Source: an uncultured candidatus Porisulfidus sp. (lineage in GTDB: Bacteria; Pseudomonadota; Gammaproteobacteria; Poriferisulfidales; Oxydemutatoraceae). Taken from it: a stretch of DNA of 64,000 bases. The stretch is from contig OZ244052.1 in assembly GCA_965215125.1 (NCBI GenBank), forward strand, positions 2,048,001 to 2,112,000, written 5' to 3'. This document shows, piece by piece, positions 1,229-8,927 of the stretch. A program made the position numbers and the translations under genes. Position 1 is the first letter of the stretch, and each line of letters starts with the position of its first letter. Under the pieces are notes generated by a model. It had not been told where the DNA came from. It made no database searches and worked only from the letters and a program-made list of their open reading frames with translations.

Positions 1229-3826
1229 ATGAGAACCGCAAACGATATCAGGCAATCTTTTTTAGATTTTTTCGAGGCAAAGGAACATAGCGTCGTGCCT
1301 TCGAGCCCACTTATACCCGCCAACGACCCAACATTGTTGTTTACCAATGCCGGGATGGTGCAGTTTAAGGATATTTTCTTGGGTAAAGCGCAAGCACCGT
1401 ATCAACGGGCGGTCAGCAGTCAGCGTTGTATACGTGCGGGTGGCAAGCATAACGATTTAGAGAATGTGGGTTATACCTATCGCCATCATACATTCTTTGA
1501 AATGCTGGGCAATTTTAGTTTTGGTGATTATTTCAAAAGAGAAGCGATTGCTTATGCGTGGGAGTATATCGGCGACATATTGGCGTTGCCGGTAGATAGG
1601 TTATGGGTTACGGTTTTTGAGAAAGACGACGAAGCTGCCGATATTTGGCTCAAAGATATAGGAATTAAACCCGAGCGTTTGGTTCGCATCGGCGAGCGCG
1701 ATAACTTTTGGGCAATGGGTGAGGTAGGTCCGTGTGGTCCTTGCACCGAGATATTTTATGATCACGGTGAAAAAATTGCCGGCGGTGCGCCCGGCACCGC
1801 CGAGCAGGACGGCGATCGCTATGTAGAGTTATGGAATCTTGTGTTCATGCAGTACGAGAGGAACGCTGCCGGCGAATTGTCGGATTTGCCGAAGCCCTCG
1901 GTAGATACCGGCATGGGGCTTGAGCGTATCACTGCGGTGATGCAAGGGGAGTATGATAATTATCGCACCGATTTATTTTTACCCTTGATTGAAGCGGTCG
2001 CAAATCTGAGTTCCGCCGAGTATTTGGGTGACACCTCGCAAAAGGTGATTGCCGACCATCTTCGTTCCGGTAGTTTTTTGATTGCCGACGGTGTCGTGCC
2101 GTCGAAGGAGGGACGAGGCTATGTATTAAGGCGGATTATTCGTCGCGCTTTACGCTACGGTCATAAACTTGGTATGGAGGAGCCTTTCTTTCATAAATTA
2201 GTGTTGCCACTGGTAAAAAATATGGCTGATGCGTATCCGATATTAAAGGAAAAACAAACACATATAATGGAAACCTTAAAAAAAGAAGAGCTACGTTTCG
2301 GCGAAACTTTGAATGTAGGTTTGAGTATTTTGGAAGACCACATCAAGGAGATGTCGTCTGATGTTTTGGCGGGTGATCTGGCATTTAAGCTCTACGATAC
2401 TTATGGCTTTCCGTTGGATATCACCGAAGATATTGCTCGGGAACATAACCTGAAGGTCGATCGTGTCGCTTTCAACCGTCTGATGGACGAGCAACGCTCG
2501 CAGGCTAAGCGGGCGAGTTGCTTCGTGGACAATACCGAGATATTGGATATTACCTTACCGGCACAGGCTTTCAGTGGTTATCAAAAAACTCTGGAGCAGA
2601 GTGTTGTCAAGGAGATCTTCTGCAACGGACAAAAAGTTGAGGCGATCAATTCCGGAGAGGCGGCGACGATATTATTAGACAGCACGCCGTTTTATGCCGA
2701 GTCGGGCGGTCAAGTCGGTGATATAGGGCGGTTAGAGTCGGAATCGGCATTGTTTGAGGTGGAGGATACCCAAAAACAGAGTGATTATCATAAGCACATA
2801 GGTGTGCTCAAGCGAGGGACTTTGACCGTGGGCGAATCAGTGCAGGCGTGCATAGACGATGTGCGCAGAAAGGCTATCGTATTGAATCACTCGGCAACCC
2901 ACTTATTGCACGCCGCGTTGAGGCTGGTATTGGGTGAAGGCGTTGCACAGAAGGGTTCTTTGGTGACCGATACGCATTTGCGTTTTGATTTTTCGCACCA
3001 CACCGCAGTGACCGACGATGAGATTAAGCGCATAGAACAAATCGTCAACGAGCAAATACGCCTAAACATCAAGACCGAAGATGAAGTTATGCCCAAAGAC
3101 GAAGCAATGAAGCGCGGCGCACTTGCGTTGTTCGGAGAAAAATACGGCGAGACGGTGCGGGTGATCGGAATGGGGGATTTTTCTACCGAACTGTGCGGCG
3201 GTACGCATATCGATAGAACCGGTGATATCGGTTTGTTTAAGATCATCTCGGAAGGTGGTGTTGCGGCGGGGGTGCGCCGTATAGAAGCGGTTACCGGCAA
3301 AGCTGCGATAACACGAATGCAAGCGGATGAGTTGTGTCTGGAGACATTGCAGTCGTTATTAAAAACTTCGGCTACCGAGATTACCGATAAAGTCAAGCAG
3401 CTGCTACAAACGAATAAACGGCTGAAGAAAGAGATAGAAAAGCTGGCAACCACCGCCGACGGTGATGGTGCGTTGCTCTCTAAAGCACAGGAGATAGCAG
3501 GCATACAAGTTGTGGCAGCGCGGGTTGAACACGCCGACGCAAAAATAATGCGCAAACTGGTCGACCAAATGAAAATGAAGCTCGGAGATGCTGCGATTAT
3601 TTTAGGTGCCGAGAAAGACGATAAGGCGATATTGATCGCCGGCGTTAGCAAAAGCTGTGTAGACCGCATCTCGGCGCAACGATTGATTAATGCAATCGCG
3701 TCACAGGTCGACGGTAAAGGCGGCGGACGCGACGATATGGCGGAAGCCGGCGGTAAAAACCCGGCAGCTTTGGATAAAGCATTGGCATCGGTTCCCGAGT
3801 GGGTGCGCAAACATTTGGCAGCTTGA
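1229..3826 (+). CDS. alaS: Alanine--tRNA ligase
   Basis: LLFTNAGMVQFK, RHHTFFEMLGNFSFGDYFK, ELCGGTH and GKGGGR motifs; 865 aa. Confidence 0.98.
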   Translation: MRTANDIRQSFLDFFEAKEHSVVPSSPLIPANDPTLLFTNAGMVQFKDIFLGKAQAPYQRAVSSQRCIRAGGKHNDLENVGYTYRHHTFFEMLGNFSFGDYFKREAIAYAWEYIGDILALPVDRLWVTVFEKDDEAADIWLKDIGIKPERLVRIGERDNFWAMGEVGPCGPCTEIFYDHGEKIAGGAPGTAEQDGDRYVELWNLVFMQYERNAAGELSDLPKPSVDTGMGLERITAVMQGEYDNYRTDLFLPLIEAVANLSSAEYLGDTSQKVIADHLRSGSFLIADGVVPSKEGRGYVLRRIIRRALRYGHKLGMEEPFFHKLVLPLVKNMADAYPILKEKQTHIMETLKKEELRFGETLNVGLSILEDHIKEMSSDVLAGDLAFKLYDTYGFPLDITEDIAREHNLKVDRVAFNRLMDEQRSQAKRASCFVDNTEILDITLPAQAFSGYQKTLEQSVVKEIFCNGQKVEAINSGEAATILLDSTPFYAESGGQVGDIGRLESESALFEVEDTQKQSDYHKHIGVLKRGTLTVGESVQACIDDVRRKAIVLNHSATHLLHAALRLVLGEGVAQKGSLVTDTHLRFDFSHHTAVTDDEIKRIEQIVNEQIRLNIKTEDEVMPKDEAMKRGALALFGEKYGETVRVIGMGDFSTELCGGTHIDRTGDIGLFKIISEGGVAAGVRRIEAVTGKAAITRMQADELCLETLQSLLKTSATEITDKVKQLLQTNKRLKKEIEKLATTADGDGALLSKAQEIAGIQVVAARVEHADAKIMRKLVDQMKMKLGDAAIILGAEKDDKAILIAGVSKSCVDRISAQRLINAIASQVDGKGGGRDDMAEAGGKNPAALDKALASVPEWVRKHLAA

Positions 3827-3827
3827 G

Positions 3828-4457
3828 GTGCGCACACGGATTAAATTCTGCGGCATAAACAAGCAGTCCGATTTCGCTTATGCGGCATCACTGGGTGCGG
3901 ATATCGTGGGGTTGGTTTTCTATGAGGCGAGTCCTCGCTATATTGATATTGCGCATGCGCAAAGCCTAATGCACAAAGCCGATAGATCGTTAAAAGTAGC
4001 GGCTTTGTTCATGGATGCCGACCATGATTTTATCGCCGACATAGCCAAGCAGATCAATGTGGATTATATACAATTTCACGGCACCGAATCGGTGGCGTTT
4101 TGTACTTCGTTTTCTTTACCTTATATCAAAGCGATACCCATGGCAGACGAAGCACAGGCAAACGAAATGATAGAAGCGCATCGCAATAGTGCGGACATAC
4201 TGTTGCTGGATGGCCATCGTGTCGGAATGCCCGGTGGCGGAGGGATTACTTTTGATTGGCGGGACCTCTCTAATATCAATGCTTCAATATTCGTTGCCGG
4301 TGGATTGAATCCCGAAAATGTAGCACAAGCCATTGCACAATGCCGTCCGCAAGGTGTGGATGTCAGTAGCGGTGTTGAATCAACCGTCGGAGTCAAGGAC
4401 CCTGCATTGATGAAAGCCTTTGCTCAAGCGGTACTGCGTGCCGATTCGAAACGATAA
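3828..4457 (+). CDS. trpF: Phosphoribosylanthranilate isomerase
   Basis: RTRIKFCGI, QFHGTE, GGGGITFDW, AGGLNPENV, GVDVSSGVE; GTG start 1 nt after the alaS stop (ORF-track start 3690 over-extended). Confidence 0.93.
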   Translation: MRTRIKFCGINKQSDFAYAASLGADIVGLVFYEASPRYIDIAHAQSLMHKADRSLKVAALFMDADHDFIADIAKQINVDYIQFHGTESVAFCTSFSLPYIKAIPMADEAQANEMIEAHRNSADILLLDGHRVGMPGGGGITFDWRDLSNINASIFVAGGLNPENVAQAIAQCRPQGVDVSSGVESTVGVKDPALMKAFAQAVLRADSKR

Positions 4458-4657: not shown

Positions 4658-4841
4658 CGAGCCGAACTTTCGCGCAATAAATCGGTGAATTTTAGGGTAT
4701 TAAACCTGTTTTAACCTTTGTTTAATTAGCTTTCAAAGGATTATTGAATGTGTATTTAACATAACGTAACCTTCGCGCTAACTCGCGCGCACAAACCTTT
4801 GTACAAAAACGGCACTTTTATACAAGTAATGCCCTGCTATT

Positions 4842-5327
4842 TTAGGCTAACGGCAGGCTGATAAATCGGGCGATAATCTCCTCAATTTCACTGCGACCTT
4901 CGTTTGATAATCCGAGAAACGGACGCGCCGGAATATCTCCCCAAGGAATAGGGCGGCCGTGCCTATCACTACCAAAGCTACCTCTTCCTGAACCAAATTG
5001 ATGTGTAGCTGCGTAGATAACATTAGTGCCTGCGATGGCATAATCTTTACCGAAGGCTGATGTGATACTGTTTGCGAGCCGACCTGTTTGCTGTAGCTTC
5101 TGCCCCGGCCAATAGCCGGATTTCTCGCGCTGTTTGATTGTTGTGTCCGACAACGGCACCCATGTCTCACCATTCGGTGCTTGTTCGGACTGAAAGGCTT
5201 CCTCAATATTATCTACCAACACACCGGCAATCGCCTGCATTGCAGGTGATAGGTCGTCACCGCGACGTGCCAGAAAGTTTAATGATTGCAGTGCCTTTTT
5301 GTCTTTGATTTTAATATCTATTTTCAT
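4842..5327 (-). CDS. Phage virion morphogenesis protein (Mu gpG-like)
   Basis: F-E-APNG-W-PLS, LQQTGRLANSI, GTNVIYAATHQFG, IPARPFLG motifs. Confidence 0.9.
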   Translation of the reverse strand: MKIDIKIKDKKALQSLNFLARRGDDLSPAMQAIAGVLVDNIEEAFQSEQAPNGETWVPLSDTTIKQREKSGYWPGQKLQQTGRLANSITSAFGKDYAIAGTNVIYAATHQFGSGRGSFGSDRHGRPIPWGDIPARPFLGLSNEGRSEIEEIIARFISLPLA

Positions 5328-5329
5328 TA

Positions 5330-5338
5330 TGCTATACT
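5330..5338 (+). promoter_or_regulatory. Putative extended -10 promoter (TGcTATACT) firing antisense to the phage genes
   Basis: TG at 5330-5331, TATACT at 5333-5338, 4 nt upstream of a structured element. Confidence 0.5.
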
Positions 5339-5342
5339 TTAA

Positions 5343-5441
5343 GTGAGGGTTGTGCGGACTGAATTATCAGAGTTAGGTCGCCAACATAATTTAGTAATCA
5401 TTAAGTGCCTAACCACTTAAGCGAAATCACCCAACCCTCAC
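5343..5441 (+). ncRNA. Candidate structured small RNA convergent on the MuF toxin 3' end
   Basis: Perfect 10-bp closing stem GTGAGGGTTG(5343-5352)/CAACCCTCAC(5432-5441); internal hairpins CTGA-ATTA-TCAG and TTAAGTG-CCTAAC-CACTTAA; upstream extended -10. Confidence 0.45.
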
Positions 5442-5449
5442 CCTTTAAT

Positions 5450-6787
5450 CTACTTATTTTCATACAACAACACACCCTTGCGTTGATTGTTAATATAGTT
5501 TACTTTACTGGTAAATATAGCATTCAGAAACAAACTGCCATCTTGATTTTCTCGCACAATAATCAGCATGTTTTTTTTGCTCTTAAAAGATTTTATAAAT
5601 TGCCTGCGAAAGCCATCTTTGTATTCTGTCAACCAAACCTCATTAGGCTTTTCTAGCGTCGGTAATATAAAGTTAGCAAACCTTTCTCTTTGGTGCTCTC
5701 GCTTCAGCATCATATGTCGCATATGCTGAAGTTTAACAAAAACTGGTTCAACTGGTGTATTGATTTGCCTCCAACCCTTGCCCTGAAAAATGACTCTGTT
5801 AATTTGCTTTAAGGCTCCGCTTAACGATTGTGCGCTAGGCAAAACTTTAGGTGTCTCATCTAAAAATTTAGAAGGATAATCTTTTATGCTGGGTAATCCG
5901 TAGTCTTTATAGTTTGGTTGATTGGGTTCTATGATGGCGACACCTTTGCCACGACCGCCGACTTGATCGGGCAATGCGCCGAGCTTATCCCACAAAGCCC
6001 ACCTAGCACCCGGGTTATAACCGAAGCTGGCATCGGGTGCCTCTAAAAATGTTTGGCCCGCCGCATCCTTGCCTCGATACCTGACAGCTTGTTGGGTTAG
6101 CACTTCGCCTGTATATTTATCAACGCCGACTTCTTGAGTGAAGGTCTCCAGATGTCCTTCACTCGTACCAACTTTCAGTCCACGAGATTTAACTTGTCGC
6201 TCGGTTAGTGTCCGCACACGACACCGGCAATTCCAGCCGTTAGGCGGATAAAAGGTGTCCCAGAACGGATCGTCAAAGCGGAAGACTTTGCCATGTAGCT
6301 TGCGGTGCGCCGGACGAGTGCGAGAGTCCATCACGGCGAGGTATTGCCAGTATTTTCTTGTACCGATGCGCTGTGTTGCCAGTTCTACCTGTTGTTTGTA
6401 TCTACCCGCACTATAAGCGGTATTTAAGTTGGTTCTAAAGATGGTTTTAAGCCTATTTACCGAACCCAGTTGCACTAGTTCAGCGGTGCCGTCGGGAGCC
6501 TCTTTTACGCGTCTACCCCACCAGCCGAGCTTCTGCAGTTTCGGTTGTAGTTCTTTCTTATAAGTATGGAAAGCGATACCTTCGGAGATTGCTTTATCGG
6601 TCTCATTACGGATAGCCCGCAATACTTCCATTTTGGTAGCTTTGGCAATCGTGAATGCTTTCGCGTTTGCTTCGGCTAGCGATTCGTGCCAGTCCCATGT
6701 GATACGATAGCCTTTACTTCTAAAGTATTCAATAGCATCACTCGGTTGGAGTTTAACCGCAAACCCGAGATCAACTGCTTCAGGCAT
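5450..6787 (-). CDS. MuF (SPP1 gp7-like) head morphogenesis protein with C-terminal PBECR2-like nuclease extension
   Basis: RLKTIFRTN, WQYLAVMDSRTRPAH, PPNGWNCRCRV, F-YNPG; C-terminal RERF..FILPTLEKPNEVW...RRQFIK...YINNQRKGVLLY resembles PBECR2. Confidence 0.85.
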   Translation of the reverse strand: MPEAVDLGFAVKLQPSDAIEYFRSKGYRITWDWHESLAEANAKAFTIAKATKMEVLRAIRNETDKAISEGIAFHTYKKELQPKLQKLGWWGRRVKEAPDGTAELVQLGSVNRLKTIFRTNLNTAYSAGRYKQQVELATQRIGTRKYWQYLAVMDSRTRPAHRKLHGKVFRFDDPFWDTFYPPNGWNCRCRVRTLTERQVKSRGLKVGTSEGHLETFTQEVGVDKYTGEVLTQQAVRYRGKDAAGQTFLEAPDASFGYNPGARWALWDKLGALPDQVGGRGKGVAIIEPNQPNYKDYGLPSIKDYPSKFLDETPKVLPSAQSLSGALKQINRVIFQGKGWRQINTPVEPVFVKLQHMRHMMLKREHQRERFANFILPTLEKPNEVWLTEYKDGFRRQFIKSFKSKKNMLIIVRENQDGSLFLNAIFTSKVNYINNQRKGVLLYENK

Positions 6788-7140
6788 TGAGCCGACCCCA
6801 AGTATCTGCGGCGAATATGATCCTTGTCAATAAATCATGCAAACTTTCGCCATCCATATTTGGATATCGCTCGGCGAGCAGACCCAGAATATAATCGGGA
6901 TTCTCGTCTATGGCATCAAGCAACGGTTGTGCTAAAGATTCAGCTATTTGTTGCTGTGTATTATTGTCTATGGATGACAGTATTGCCTCCAACGCCTCTT
7001 CCACATCGGCAGTCTCGGCAAAGTCCGATGTTTGATTACCCGCCGGTGGTGCGATCGGTATTCCAACATCGTCTACTTCAATCTTATAAGTCTGTTCAAT
7101 ATGTTCTTTCGTTGGACGATAGCCCATACGATAGATAATT
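6780..7140 (-). pseudogene. C-terminal fragment of Mu gp29-like portal protein (DUF935)
   Basis: LAERYPNMD...L.DLLTRIIFAADTWGR tail; stop overlaps the MuF start; 5' part replaced by IS3 sequence. Confidence 0.75.
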
Positions 7141-7600
7141 TCATCTGCTGGTCTCGGCTCCAGTGGAACATGATCTTGCATCTAAACTCGGTGCCATTGT
7201 CGCAGACGATGCGTGCCGGCTTTGCGCCGAGCCGGCCTATCAATTCAGATAGATAATCTGCTACAGATTTGCCGGTAATCGAAACATCAACAATCTGCCC
7301 GACACATTCACGGCTGAAGTTATCTACTATGTTCAATATCCGAAAGCGTCTACCGTCGCTGAGCTGGTCATGCACAAAGTCCATTGACCAGCACTCATTG
7401 ACCCTAGTCGGTGTTGTCGGCACGCCACGTGGACGACACAGCTTCTTGCGCTTCTTAGTTCTCAATTCAAGCCCGAGCTTCTTATGAAGCCTATAGGTGC
7501 GCTTCACATTGACCACCCGTCCTTCGCTCTTTAGAAGCGCATGTAGCATCTTATAGCCATAATGCGGATACTAGATTGCCTTCTCCAATCCTGTGCCGAC
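7138..7600 (-). mobile_element. IS3-family transposase OrfB internal fragment (pseudogene)
   Basis: YGYKMLHALLKSEG..VNVKRTYRL, WSMDFVHDQLSDGRRFRILNIVDNFSREC, CDNGTEF; in-frame stop upstream and truncated downstream. Confidence 0.9.
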
Positions 7601-7736: not shown

Positions 7737-8927
7737 ATGAAAGCACAAGAGCAAAAAGCCGATATATCCGGACATTTCGGTCCTTACGGAGGACGCTTTG
7801 TCTCGGAGACCCTGATGTGGCCCTTAGAGGAATTGGAAGCCGCTTATCTGCGCTATAAAGACGATGCCGATTTCATTGCCGAATACGAGAACGATCTGCG
7901 CGATTATGTAGGCAGGCCGAGTCCGCTTTATCTTGCGGCGCGATGGAGCGAGATTTTAGGTGGTGCACAGATTTACTTAAAGCGAGAGGACTTAAATCAT
8001 ACCGGTGCCCATAAGATCAATAGTGCTTTGGGTCAAGCTTTGCTCGCCAAGCGTATGGGTAAACAGCGAATTATTGCCGAAACCGGTGCCGGTCAGCACG
8101 GTGTCGCAACGGCGACGGTGGCTGCGCGTTTGGGTTTGGAGTGTGTTATCTATATGGGTGATGAGGATATCAAACGACAAAAACCCAATGTATATCGCAT
8201 GGAATTGCTCGGAGCCGAGGTCGTTCCGGTAAAAAGCGGTTCGCGTACCTTGAAAGACGCGCTCAACGAAGCGATGCGCGATTGGGTGACCTATGTAGAT
8301 CAAACCTTCTATATTATCGGGACGGTTGCAGGACCTCACCCTTATCCAACAATGGTTAGGCATTTTCAATCGGTGATAGGACGCGAGACCAGACAACAAA
8401 TTCTGGAGTTGAACGGCGCACTGCCGAGTGCGTTGCTCGCTTGTGTCGGTGGCGGCTCCAATGCGCTGGGTTTATTCCATGCTTTTCTGGGCGACGAAAC
8501 CGTTGAATTGTACGGTGTAGAAGCCGGCGGCGAAGGCTTGGAGGGCGATCGACATTCGGCATCGCTCAGTGCAGGCAAGCCGGGGGTGTTGCACGGTAAC
8601 CGCACTTATTTACTGGAGGATGGCGACGGGCAGATACTACCGGCACATTCGGTATCGGCGGGTTTGGATTATCCCGGAGTCGGTCCCGAACACGCATGGC
8701 TGAAAGATACCGGCAGAGTCTCCTATGTTACCGTCACCGACGGTCAAGCCTTGGATGCATTCCACCAATTAACCCGTTGCGAAGGTATTATCCCTGCTTT
8801 GGAAACCAGCCATGCCTTAGCTTATACCACACAACTCGCAAAACGCTATGCGCATACCGATGCGATCGTTGTCAATTTATCGGGGAGAGGGGATAAAGAT
8901 TTAGAGACGGTTCGCAGCTTCGTCTAA
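7737..8927 (+). CDS. trpB: Tryptophan synthase beta chain
   Basis: [46 protein letters not shown]. Confidence 0.98.

Follow-up and report, generated by a model that had tools for sequence, protein, structure and literature searches.

We examined a 64,000-nt stretch of DNA (the window, whose positions serve as coordinates throughout) and conclude from sequence comparison that the spacer between its MuF-PBECR2 gene and gpG is probably a convergent small-RNA gene coupled to PBECR2 that had not previously been described. Among relatives the element is conserved, its helices covary, its strand is biased, its promoter-like site is kept, and it is linked exclusively to PBECR2. The whole explanation that we favour, a plus-strand small-RNA gene that is the dedicated partner of PBECR2 and probably neutralises this RNase, is put forward tentatively, at only just short of an even chance. 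The features of the locus are:

4842..5327, minus strand: gpG (virion morphogenesis) gene, 161 aa (Pfam Phage_tail_S, E 3.8e-35; phrog_26)
5311..5338, plus strand: promoter-like site TTAATA, 16 nt, TATACT, with TG (promoter scan), overlapping the gpG start codon on the other strand
5328..5449: spacer between the MuF-PBECR2 gene and gpG, 122 nt
5343..5352, plus strand: 5′ arm of P1, GTGAGGGTTG, perfect 10-bp inverted repeat with 5432-5441
5344..5449, plus strand: predicted small RNA of about 100 nt with putative ends (folds, covariation, covariance model)
5358..5395, plus strand: P2 hairpin, arms 5358-5367/5386-5395 (10 bp), 18-nt loop (inverted repeat, MFE fold, covariation)
5401..5420, plus strand: P3 hairpin TTAAGTG-CCTAAC-CACTTAA (sequence, MFE fold; class-A covariation)
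5432..5441, plus strand: 3′ arm of P1, CAACCCTCAC, perfect 10-bp inverted repeat with 5343-5352
5450..6787, minus strand: MuF-PBECR2 gene, intact, 445 aa (open frame; Pfam Phage_Mu_F and PBECR2)
5459..5749, minus strand: PBECR2-coding part, aa 347-443 (Pfam PF18810, E 6.7e-18)
5571..5578: T8 run (A8 on the coding strand) in PBECR2 codons K-K-N
6780..7181, minus strand: C-terminal fragment of a portal gene, prophage remnant (phrog_113, E 3.3e-17, profile positions 389-515 of 1272)

A sequence-only reading of this DNA had described an intact MuF gene with a C-terminal PBECR2, a 122-bp gap to gpG, a wrecked surrounding prophage and no immunity ORF 3′ of the toxin gene, and all of this holds. The 445-aa frame is open and has two Pfam domains only, Phage_Mu_F (aa 58-191, E 6.8e-30) and PBECR2 (65.5 bits for PF18810, against a curated cut-off of 27.1); phrog_220, annotated as minor head protein and DNA pilot, covers aa 3-444. 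The portal fragment and an rve fragment (Pfam) flank one side of the MuF-PBECR2/gpG pair, and the host genes alaS, trpF and a PALP enzyme lie around the remnant. The frames inside the window spacer are limited to 24-25-aa GTG frames, none of them common to the RNA classes described below. The next gene is gpG, before which no clear Shine-Dalgarno sequence was seen.

The spacer itself was largely as that reading had drawn it. The extended -10 (TGCTATACT, 5330-5338, plus strand) lies on the strand opposite the toxin gene, the 10-bp outer stem P1 is a perfect inverted repeat that finishes 8 nt before the toxin stop codon (5450-5452), and the CCTAAC loop of P3 (5408-5413) is complementary to the GTTAGG at 5372-5377 inside the P2 loop. 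Its CTGA-ATTA-TCAG hairpin gives way in the comparative data to the covarying 10-bp helix 5358-5367/5386-5395. Folding energy compared with shuffled sequences gave z -3.0 for the plus strand and z -3.2 for the minus strand. The RNA would start at about 5344-5346 and end in the U-rich stretch after 5441, maybe a few codons into the toxin gene; no plus-strand terminator was called in the window's own spacer, and GC-rich relatives have no U-tract after P1. No direct repeats or repeat array were found in 5200-5600. The Rfam search that the reading had proposed matched no family: nothing in Rfam 15 overlapped the spacer at E<=10 (window 4800-6000), nor did any gathering-score match lie beside PBECR2 at 20 PBECR2 loci.

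The element accompanies all four PBECR2 paralogues of the window's genome, one of them a solo PBECR2 beside TraU and a PIN/AAA pair, without gpG. Within the genus we found 18 distinct copies, which fall into three sequence classes (A, to which the window's copy belongs, B and C) with one architecture. An analogous element lies 3′ of the PBECR2 gene at 24 of 27 loci of other Pseudomonadota, in a wide survey of downstream regions scored partly by eye. Its position relative to the toxin stop codon is constant across loci, and complete RNA copies remain beside truncated or frameshifted PBECR2 pieces. DNA search of the genome gave only two significant copies, both adjoining PBECR2. Farther afield, tblastn of the 174-aa C-terminal part against a phage collection gave no match, a search of viral contigs gave none either, and a metagenome scan gave one distant locus.

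The conserved structure that had been anticipated downstream of homologues is present, and three helices covary. P1 covaries within class A, and in classes B and C its sequence is wholly different yet paired; P3 has three pairs changed on both sides within class A. In the class A alignment 95.0% of cells are paired and both partners have changed in 8 pairs; neither value is reached in any of 500 shuffles, and controls slid along the sequence have 31-56% paired. For a group of nine sequences from another bacterial family, unrelated in sequence, the paired share is 92.1% and two-sided changes are seen in 15 pairs (0/500 shuffles match; slid controls 33-49%). The element is not a chance feature. 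Complementarity between the GTTAGG and CCTAAC loops is kept in 18/18 close copies with variation to G.U only; because the loop-loop pairing is invariant, covariation lends it no support. In the 2.22-Mb genome the two class-A copies are the only places where CCTAAC forms a 6-nt hairpin loop on a stem of at least 5 bp, and in the other bacterial family YCUAAC precedes the 3′ arm of P1. MAFFT alone did not bring P2 of classes A and B into register, and a model-based alignment was left out of the counts, as it mixed two registers of the long class-B P1 and included one reverse-strand row. Six divergent loci (group F) could not be aligned and were left without a consensus structure.

Several measures agree on the plus strand. 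RNAalifold favours it in all three alignments (-44.4 vs -36.0, -32.6 vs -21.9 and -21.8 vs -13.1 kcal/mol), there are 33 G.U cells against 7 A.C cells, and distinct helix variants divide likewise (G.U/A.C 11/2 in P1, 19/3 in P2 and 5/3 in P3). One U.G pair present in 8/9 sequences of the other-family group becomes a C.A mismatch on the sense strand. Covariance model R1 scores the window element at 108 bits on the plus strand and 25 bits on the minus strand. The -10 of the opposite strand, whose conservation the sequence-only reading had left to be checked, is indeed kept: TAnnnT stands 3-10 nt before P1 in 35/37 elements, 24 of these with TGn, against 3/37 in the mirror control, in a set picked from loci already showing the outer stem. 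Close copies keep the -10 in 18/18 and TGn in 17/18. At 4/6 group F loci a stem with a T-run on the antisense strand abuts the toxin stop. Of the marks of a bacterial small-RNA gene (promoter, structured body, intrinsic terminator), a conserved promoter-like site on the RNA strand and helices backed by covariation are present here.

Every match of two covariance models, R1 and R2, lies beside PBECR2. All nine R1 matches (21 genomes) and all eight R2 matches (23 genomes) are convergent with PBECR2 and abut its 3′ end, making 17/17 in two bacterial families. Gap lengths at 28 gpG loci were also compared. PBECR2 genes are separated from gpG by 125-165 nt (7 loci) and MuF genes without a C-terminal extension by 32-40 nt (4 genes). 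For MuF genes with other C-terminal regions the distance is 199-403 nt, and a sense frame of 54-104 aa occupies it every time (5 genes). The F and G genes of phage Mu share 4 nt. Where gpG is absent, the element and its promoter are intact. These comparisons support a genetic tie of the element to PBECR2 and not to gpG, and support its filling the slot in which other MuF toxins appear to carry a small ORF. Co-occurrence of RNA and PBECR2 may reflect common descent in one Mu-like phage lineage and not function.

RNase activity and toxicity of PBECR2 are predictions from sequence. The AlphaFold model of the last 174 aa of the MuF-PBECR2 protein has a pLDDT of 78.7. Foldseek found nothing for this part at E<=0.001, and VIA-align gave a best Z of 4.2, with weak BECR-like rows (CDI toxin 7m5f_C, Z 4.0; colicin D 5znm_B, Z 3.7) among unrelated ones. 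The accessible part of Iyer et al. [quoted passage not shown] Several relatives, proteins linked to class B among them, have Tyr in place of the candidate catalytic His (H87 in the 174-aa part); T116, R96, E97, R123 and K128 are invariant or almost so among relatives.

A dedicated neutralising partner is not the only reading of such an element; an antisense regulator and an RNA cofactor are serious competitors. We think it unlikely that the RNA is a cis-antisense regulator of the late operon, one that anneals to the late mRNA between F and G, causes its cleavage or decay or tunes gpG translation, holds down leaky MuF/gpG expression in lysogens and leaves the protein untouched. Such a regulator would be expected to look like this: convergent, with an apparent promoter of its own and U-rich ends, and able to pair with every base of the mRNA between the toxin stop and a point some 18 nt short of the gpG start. 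Complementarity to the 3′ untranslated part of the toxin mRNA is automatic because the gene is convergent. Regulators of this type, for which lambda OOP RNA and the 3′-overlapping type I antitoxins are models, are typically structured and expose their loops. However, the element and promoter are intact at loci without gpG and follow PBECR2, not MuF-gpG junctions generally; GUUAGG/CCUAAC and YCUAAC are kept across dissimilar classes, motifs that a cis-complementary RNA does not need; and pairing of an sRNA with the MuF translation start was tried and dropped, complementarity there giving no signal (z -1.3 to +1.0, 8 loci). It is improbable that the RNA is a partner or cofactor of PBECR2 and not its inhibitor, a guide, activator, chaperone or cargo that the domain binds and needs for its job, for instance in packaging with the minor head protein. 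The one-to-one linkage of RNA and domain and the compact conserved fold would suit this, as would the predicted RNA binding of the inactive PBECR of Mu gp30 (accessible part of Iyer et al., 2017, PMC5512222), but Mu itself, with its inactive domain, has no spacer. A constitutive-looking promoter facing the late operon suits expression with the late genes off, and complete RNA copies beside broken PBECR2 genes fit protection better.

The spacer could also work on the sense strand, within the late mRNA, either as a hairpin for processing or stability or, for translational coupling, as a closed insert that puts the F stop next to the G start; the "-10" would then be incidental. This is very improbable, although the window spacer folds slightly better on the minus strand (-37.2 vs -29.9 kcal/mol), P1 stretches between the toxin stop and a point some 15 nt ahead of the start of gpG, which has no clear Shine-Dalgarno sequence, and F and G of Mu are translationally overlapped. 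The strand data oppose it (RNAalifold 3/3 for the plus strand, G.U over A.C 33 to 7, the sense-strand C.A mismatch for the U.G pair of 8/9 sequences), as do the -10 in 35/37 elements against 3/37 mirror controls, the stem and T-run terminators on the antisense strand only, and retention of the element at loci without gpG. Scarcely credible is a chance structure or DNA-level repeat (MITE, recombination or attC-like site) with no RNA function, a reading largely refuted by the covariation and the covariance-model linkage to PBECR2. It could draw on the terminal inverted repeats, on the many other repeats and IS elements at relatives' loci, and on GTTAGG/CCTAAC, which we take to resemble integron core and inverse-core words. 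A mobile repeat fits poorly with just two significant genome copies by DNA search, both beside PBECR2, at a fixed position relative to the stop codon, and with pair changes that tolerate G.U. The motif order is the reverse of that in attC and the motifs lie within the outer stem, and on these grounds an integron attC was dropped.

Under the favoured explanation of a dedicated neutralising RNA, a sigma-70-type promoter with the extended -10 at 5330-5338 would fire at about 5344-5346, and the transcript of about 100 nt would fold into a three-way junction closed by P1, in which the 18-nt P2 loop (GUUAGG) and the 6-nt P3 loop (CCUAAC) could kiss. Its U-rich end would overlap the stop and last codons of the toxin. 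As dedicated genetic partner of the PBECR2 RNase domain, in the immunity-ORF slot, the RNA would be made constitutively by the prophage and would neutralise the RNase, whether this is produced inside the cell or arrives by injection from related phages. The domain may bind the RNA as a structured pseudo-substrate, as type III antitoxins do; we infer this antidote role from the pattern of linkage and conservation. Addiction need not be invoked to account for the survival of the module; protection of the lysogen from the injected RNase of related phages would fit equally well. In general form the proposal is that a structured RNA serves as immunity factor against a virion-delivered RNase and that Mu-like prophages across Pseudomonadota protect lysogens by RNA, with no immunity protein; we consider this somewhat more apt to fail than to hold.

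The sequence-only reading had likened the locus to type III toxin-antitoxin systems. The structured element and the 18/18 loop-loop complementarity agree with this; the defining type III anatomy and toxin family do not. As in ToxIN, CptIN and TenpIN, a (predicted) endoribonuclease stands beside a structured, pseudoknot-capable ncRNA, often in a phage-related setting, and neutralisation by direct RNA-protein binding is proposed. In the accessible descriptions of type III systems, tandem RNA repeats precede the toxin gene on its own strand, a terminator stands between the two, and the toxin cuts the RNA. The RNA proposed here would instead exist as one copy, convergent with the toxin gene and downstream of it, under its own promoter, and no repeat array was seen. 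Pfam places the toxin domain in PBECR2, a BECR-fold family, and not in ToxN, AbiQ, CptN or TenpN. Type I pairs and phage antisense RNAs that overlap the 3′ end of a gene, such as bsrG/SR4, RalR/RalA and lambda OOP, also comprise a small RNA that is transcribed convergently from a promoter of its own, finishes in a U-rich stretch and can pair with the 3′ end of the mRNA for a prophage toxin or regulator. In contrast, the predicted RNA here reaches into coding sequence by just the stop codon plus a few more, the presumed toxin is a virion protein of 445 aa and not a small, usually membrane-active peptide, and the conserved loop motifs and closed three-way junction exceed what complementarity needs.

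The MuF toxin modules of Jamet et al. 2017 (PMC5576092) are similar, in the accessible part of that paper, in their N-terminal MuF, nuclease-type C-terminal extension of >100 aa, prophage packaging-module context and dedicated element directly downstream. The present protein has the N-terminal MuF and the C-terminal extension of at least 100 aa with a toxin-type domain that mark a MuF toxin; the small downstream immunity ORF of a MuF module was not found. Such a small ORF is given there for 89.4% of 191 MuF toxin genes, whereas here a predicted RNA gene occupies the slot and no frame fits; the same part leaves the C-terminal extensions of Proteobacteria uncharacterised and their toxin status undecided. 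Phage Mu shares the gene order portal, F, G and the MuF domain, but its F and G overlap by 4 nt without a spacer, and its F C-terminal PBECR-like domain is called inactive in the accessible part of Iyer et al. 2017 (PMC5512222), which predicts RNases and there names no partner. MuF-fused BECR-Tox3/DUF6883 (bioRxiv 10.64898/2026.08.28.747851), as far as its accessible text goes, also places a BECR-fold RNase on Phage_Mu_F with a conserved downstream partner, which there is the protein DUF4926 and here would be RNA.

A predicted RNA gene locked to the C-terminal domain of Mu F-type minor head proteins is a concrete handle on what that domain does. If the RNA confers immunity, a polymorphic-toxin-type system would have its first RNA "immunity gene", and a BECR-fold nuclease a new class of RNA antitoxin, convergent and single-copy. 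RNA antitoxins would then no longer be confined to the three families of type III but would take in BECR nucleases and effectors injected by phages, and the absence of an immunity ORF at PBECR2 loci would be explained. An unannotated RNA family would be added to many prophages, and the conserved unpaired YCUAAC motif would hint at the natural or cellular target of the RNase. Were the RNA an antisense regulator only, it would still be a widespread, undescribed phage small RNA.

Other identities for the element were tried and dropped. A small peptide was considered on account of a 17-22-aa sense frame (MNLKPNLIS...) in most class-B copies only; class A (the window included), class C and the other family lack it, and its variable sites coincide with covarying helix positions. 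CRISPR-repeat mimicry was considered for the 35-nt repeat of the array at C1:230752-234224, with which class A has one 7-mer and one 6-mer in common, as expected by chance (judged by eye). A tRNA-like element was dropped when ARAGORN found 0 such genes in 5250-5520. Separately, relatives have frameshifts in PBECR2 at the position of the T8 run (5571-5578 in the window).

The spacer between the MuF-PBECR2 gene and gpG is, from its sequence, most likely a small-RNA gene, about 100 nt long and convergent with MuF-PBECR2, that has a predicted promoter of its own, is locked to PBECR2 and sits in the immunity slot. The features of the locus, in window coordinates, are:

4842-5327, - strand: gpG/Phage_tail_S gene (Pfam), next gene after MuF-PBECR2
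5328-5449: spacer between MuF-PBECR2 and gpG, 122 nt
5330-5338, + strand (opposite the toxin gene): extended -10 TGCTATACT (promoter scan: TTAATA-16-TATACT with TG)
5343-5352/5432-5441: outer stem P1, a perfect 10-bp inverted repeat (repeat search)
5358-5367/5386-5395: helix P2, 10 bp
5372-5377, + strand: GTTAGG, in the P2 loop
5401-5420, + strand: hairpin P3, TTAAGTG-CCTAAC-CACTTAA
5450-6787, - strand: MuF-PBECR2 gene, open frame of 445 aa, with Pfam domains Phage_Mu_F (aa 58-191) and PBECR2 (aa 347-443; 65.5 bits vs cut-off 27.1)

The sequence-only reading had noted the extended -10, the 10-bp stem, the CCTAAC hairpin and GTTAGG, all of which are found where it placed them, while its CTGA-ATTA-TCAG hairpin gives way to P2. 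It had also described an intact MuF gene in a wrecked prophage with no immunity ORF behind it. The frame is indeed open, its surroundings are a remnant (portal C-terminal fragment, MuF-PBECR2 gene, spacer and gpG) flanked by an integrase-core (rve) fragment identified by Pfam and by alaS, trpF and a PALP-enzyme gene of the host, and the spacer has room for GTG frames of only 24-25 aa before gpG begins. The spacer fold beats shuffled sequence on both strands (z about -3).

Four PBECR2 paralogues occur in the window's genome (2.22 Mb, one contig), each with a related spacer 3′ of it. One is a solo PBECR2 of 173 aa, 57% identical to the C-terminus of the window protein, whose spacer retains TGGTATACT, the two loop motifs and P1, the last with a T-A pair replaced by C-G in a compensatory change. 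gpG is absent there; the solo module (locus L002 1660-3059, about 1466760-1468160 of the genome contig G000:C1) neighbors a TraU-like gene and a convergent pair, a PIN-domain gene and one for an AAA_15/AAA_21 ATPase, which suggests a conjugative-element or defence-island context. The fetched loci of the genus hold 18 distinct copies in three sequence classes, A (the window's type), B and C. P1 is unrelated in sequence among the classes yet paired in all three (for example GTGAGGGTTG/CAACCCTCAC, GTGTGTGGCAAGC/GCTTGCCACGCAC and GGGTGAGC/GCTCACCC), and P2 and P3 vary between copies with pairing kept. The loop motifs GTTAGG and CCTAAC are invariant except for CCTAGC in three copies, which can still pair with GTTAGG as U.G on the + strand. 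Complete RNA copies also adjoin frameshifted or truncated PBECR2 pieces in relatives.

Conservation of the antisense -10 and covariation in the downstream spacers of homologues, both proposed as checks by the sequence-only reading, bear the element out. Among 37 elements, from loci picked after the outer stem had already been seen, a TAnnnT hexamer ends 3-10 nt 5′ of the outer stem in 35 (24 with TGn) vs three at the mirror position on the other strand; in the two misses the script had picked another stem. At the other end, in many loci, the terminal Lys codons of the toxin supply the U-run that follows P1. With the 8 class-A sequences taken by themselves, 95.0% of cells are paired and 8 pairs are changed on both sides, either value being matched by 0/500 shuffles, and sliding the partners by 1-3 columns leaves 31-56% paired. 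Nine aligned sequences of one group, mostly from another bacterial family, give a consensus of 34 pairs, 15 of them changed on both sides, with 92.1% of cells paired vs 81.3% in shuffles and 33-49% in slid controls; on four of five measures the observed values were matched by 0/500 shuffles. This group has an unpaired YCTAAC word immediately 5′ of the P1 3′ arm.

More distant PBECR2 genes (those of the same family, one belonging to a different family in the class, and a metagenome relative with 30% identity) have spacers differing in sequence, all with an antisense -10 and then a closing stem. A Pfam search for PF18810 in 401 Pseudomonadota genomes found matches in 30. Of 28 downstream loci viewed (L059, from the window's own genome, and L075, a match at a contig edge, were dropped), L053 extended just 22 nt downstream, leaving 27 that were sorted by script and by eye. 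TAnnnT followed by an element closed by an outer stem was seen in 14, TGGTATCCT with a structured spacer in three, and TAGAAT with an outer stem in one; six carry a CC-TAnnnT hexamer shortly beyond the gpG start, four of these also with an antisense-strand stem plus T-run abutting the toxin stop, and three were assigned to no pattern. Covariance model R1, built from class A, recovers class-B copies on the same strand (E 1e-5 to 1e-7). Searched against 21 genomes, it recovered class A only, with 9 matches in 4 genomes, all overlapping a PBECR2-coding 3′ end by a few bases on the opposite strand. R2, built from a group in another bacterial family, gave 8 matches in 7 of 23 genomes, each adjoining one of the 8 PF18810 matches of those genomes. 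Among the best 150 first-look candidates of each search, no copy lies away from a PBECR2 3′ end. A word GGCAAUGA / CGAUR, located 3′ in the inner hairpin P2, is common to GC-rich relatives (L024, L025, L027, L042, L056, L058 and L082) and may serve as a family signature of greater depth than CCUAAC.

The slot before gpG was surveyed by searching those 401 genomes for PF05069 (gpG); 28 of the 30 returned loci were analysed, the own-genome locus and one contig-edge locus being dropped, and 20 of the upstream frames were compared with Pfam. In seven loci the upstream gene ends in PBECR2 and the gap to the gpG match is 125-165 nt, these being the same places as PF18810 loci and hence not independent. 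Four have a MuF without C-terminal extension and gaps of 32-40 nt; the F and G genes of phage Mu share a 4-nt overlap. In five (L087, L100, L106, L108 and L110) MuF ends in a region of another or unknown kind (an ADP-ribosyltransferase in one case), and each gap of 199-403 nt is filled by a sense frame of 54-104 aa reaching the gpG start, a candidate immunity gene. The remaining 12 are not Mu-type junctions (three are confirmed P2 gpR). According to Jamet et al. (2017, PMC5576092), a small ORF follows 89.4% of 191 MuF toxin genes; Proteobacterial MuF extensions are left uncharacterised there. Other sources describe the C-terminal PBECR of Mu gp30 as inactive (Iyer et al., 2017, PMC5512222) and a downstream protein partner for another MuF-fused BECR family (2026 preprint, bioRxiv 10.64898/2026.08.28.747851). 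MuF toxin modules have an immunity ORF, whereas the window's locus has none.

A search of Rfam 15, also suggested in the sequence-only reading, matched no family to the element, and a full-text literature search found no description of an RNA partner of MuF or PBECR proteins; the RNA family is apparently undescribed. Since the element departs from type III as well as type I systems in defining anatomy, and has no immunity ORF of the MuF kind, we place it as a putative variant form of RNA antitoxin or immunity factor.

By analogy with type III antitoxins, we favour an antidote that would act on the PBECR2 protein. The rivals are antisense regulation of the late mRNA, a cofactor role for the RNA, and coupling by an element on the sense strand. 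Sequence motifs and a compact fold are conserved across otherwise dissimilar classes, and the automatic complementarity of a cis-antisense RNA needs neither; moreover, of a 1.3-kb gene the element covers no more than the last codons, and no complementarity to the toxin gene start was detected. Persistence of the element without gpG and beside broken toxin genes likewise argues for the protein-acting antidote. As to strand, R1 scores the window's element at 108 bits on + vs 25 bits on -, and consensus folding energy is lower on + (antisense to the toxin) in all three alignments (-44.4 vs -36.0, -32.6 vs -21.9 and -21.8 vs -13.1 kcal/mol). Under the consensus structure there are 33 G.U cells to 7 A.C cells, a count biased by prediction of that structure on the + strand, a bias of which the energy comparison is free. 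One U.G pair is retained in 8/9 sequences of the nine-sequence group, and, counted over the distinct variants of each helix in the genus copies, G.U and A.C stand at 11 to 2 in P1, 19 to 3 in P2 and 5 to 3 in P3, three rows having been mis-anchored by the script for P2 and P3. Under the antidote reading, a lysogen making the RNA constitutively would be shielded from RNase injected by sibling phages, and such protection would keep the RNA in remnants with no need for addiction.

Several minor observations were made. gpG has no clear Shine-Dalgarno sequence (window 5325-5345 and relatives), and P1 in the late mRNA would draw the F stop codon and G start together; termination-reinitiation coupling of F and G across the inserted RNA gene is conceivable. 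Most class-B spacers have a sense-strand frame MNLKPNLIS... of 17-22 aa (e.g., L007 about 2040-2105, and L011), into which the reading frame of one database protein, P0020, continues; other classes do not conserve the MNLKPNLIS... frame, which is probably not coding. A CRISPR array outside the window (G000:C1:230752-234224; 35-nt repeat, 30-nt spacers, at least 32 repeats in two blocks) has a repeat with, by eye, no meaningful similarity to the small RNA. A repeated non-coding element (pseudo-ORFs ...NPFIHL...PLEGWQA...FFS.H.HIYYR) flanks and truncates PBECR2 modules of relatives (L048 4470-6190 and 7320-9060; L012), and at these loci a third RNA copy is cut by an IS3-type transposase. The 2.4-kb remnant with the rve fragment lies between trpF-like (PRAI) and PALP-family (trpB-like) genes (window 3690-4457 and 7737-8927), apparently splitting a trp gene neighborhood. 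A near-consensus promoter-like site, TTGACA-18-GATACT (window 6801-6830, - strand), lies 14 nt 5′ of the MuF start and could allow toxin expression from the remnant; it is also in paralogue L006, but the site falls within the portal coding sequence, which is 96% identical. An A8 run (T8 on +) at K-K-N codons of the PBECR2 gene (window 5571-5578) is a possible site of slippage or phase variation; in several relatives a frameshift falls at exactly this point (L048 5330-5345, with A7, and L050).
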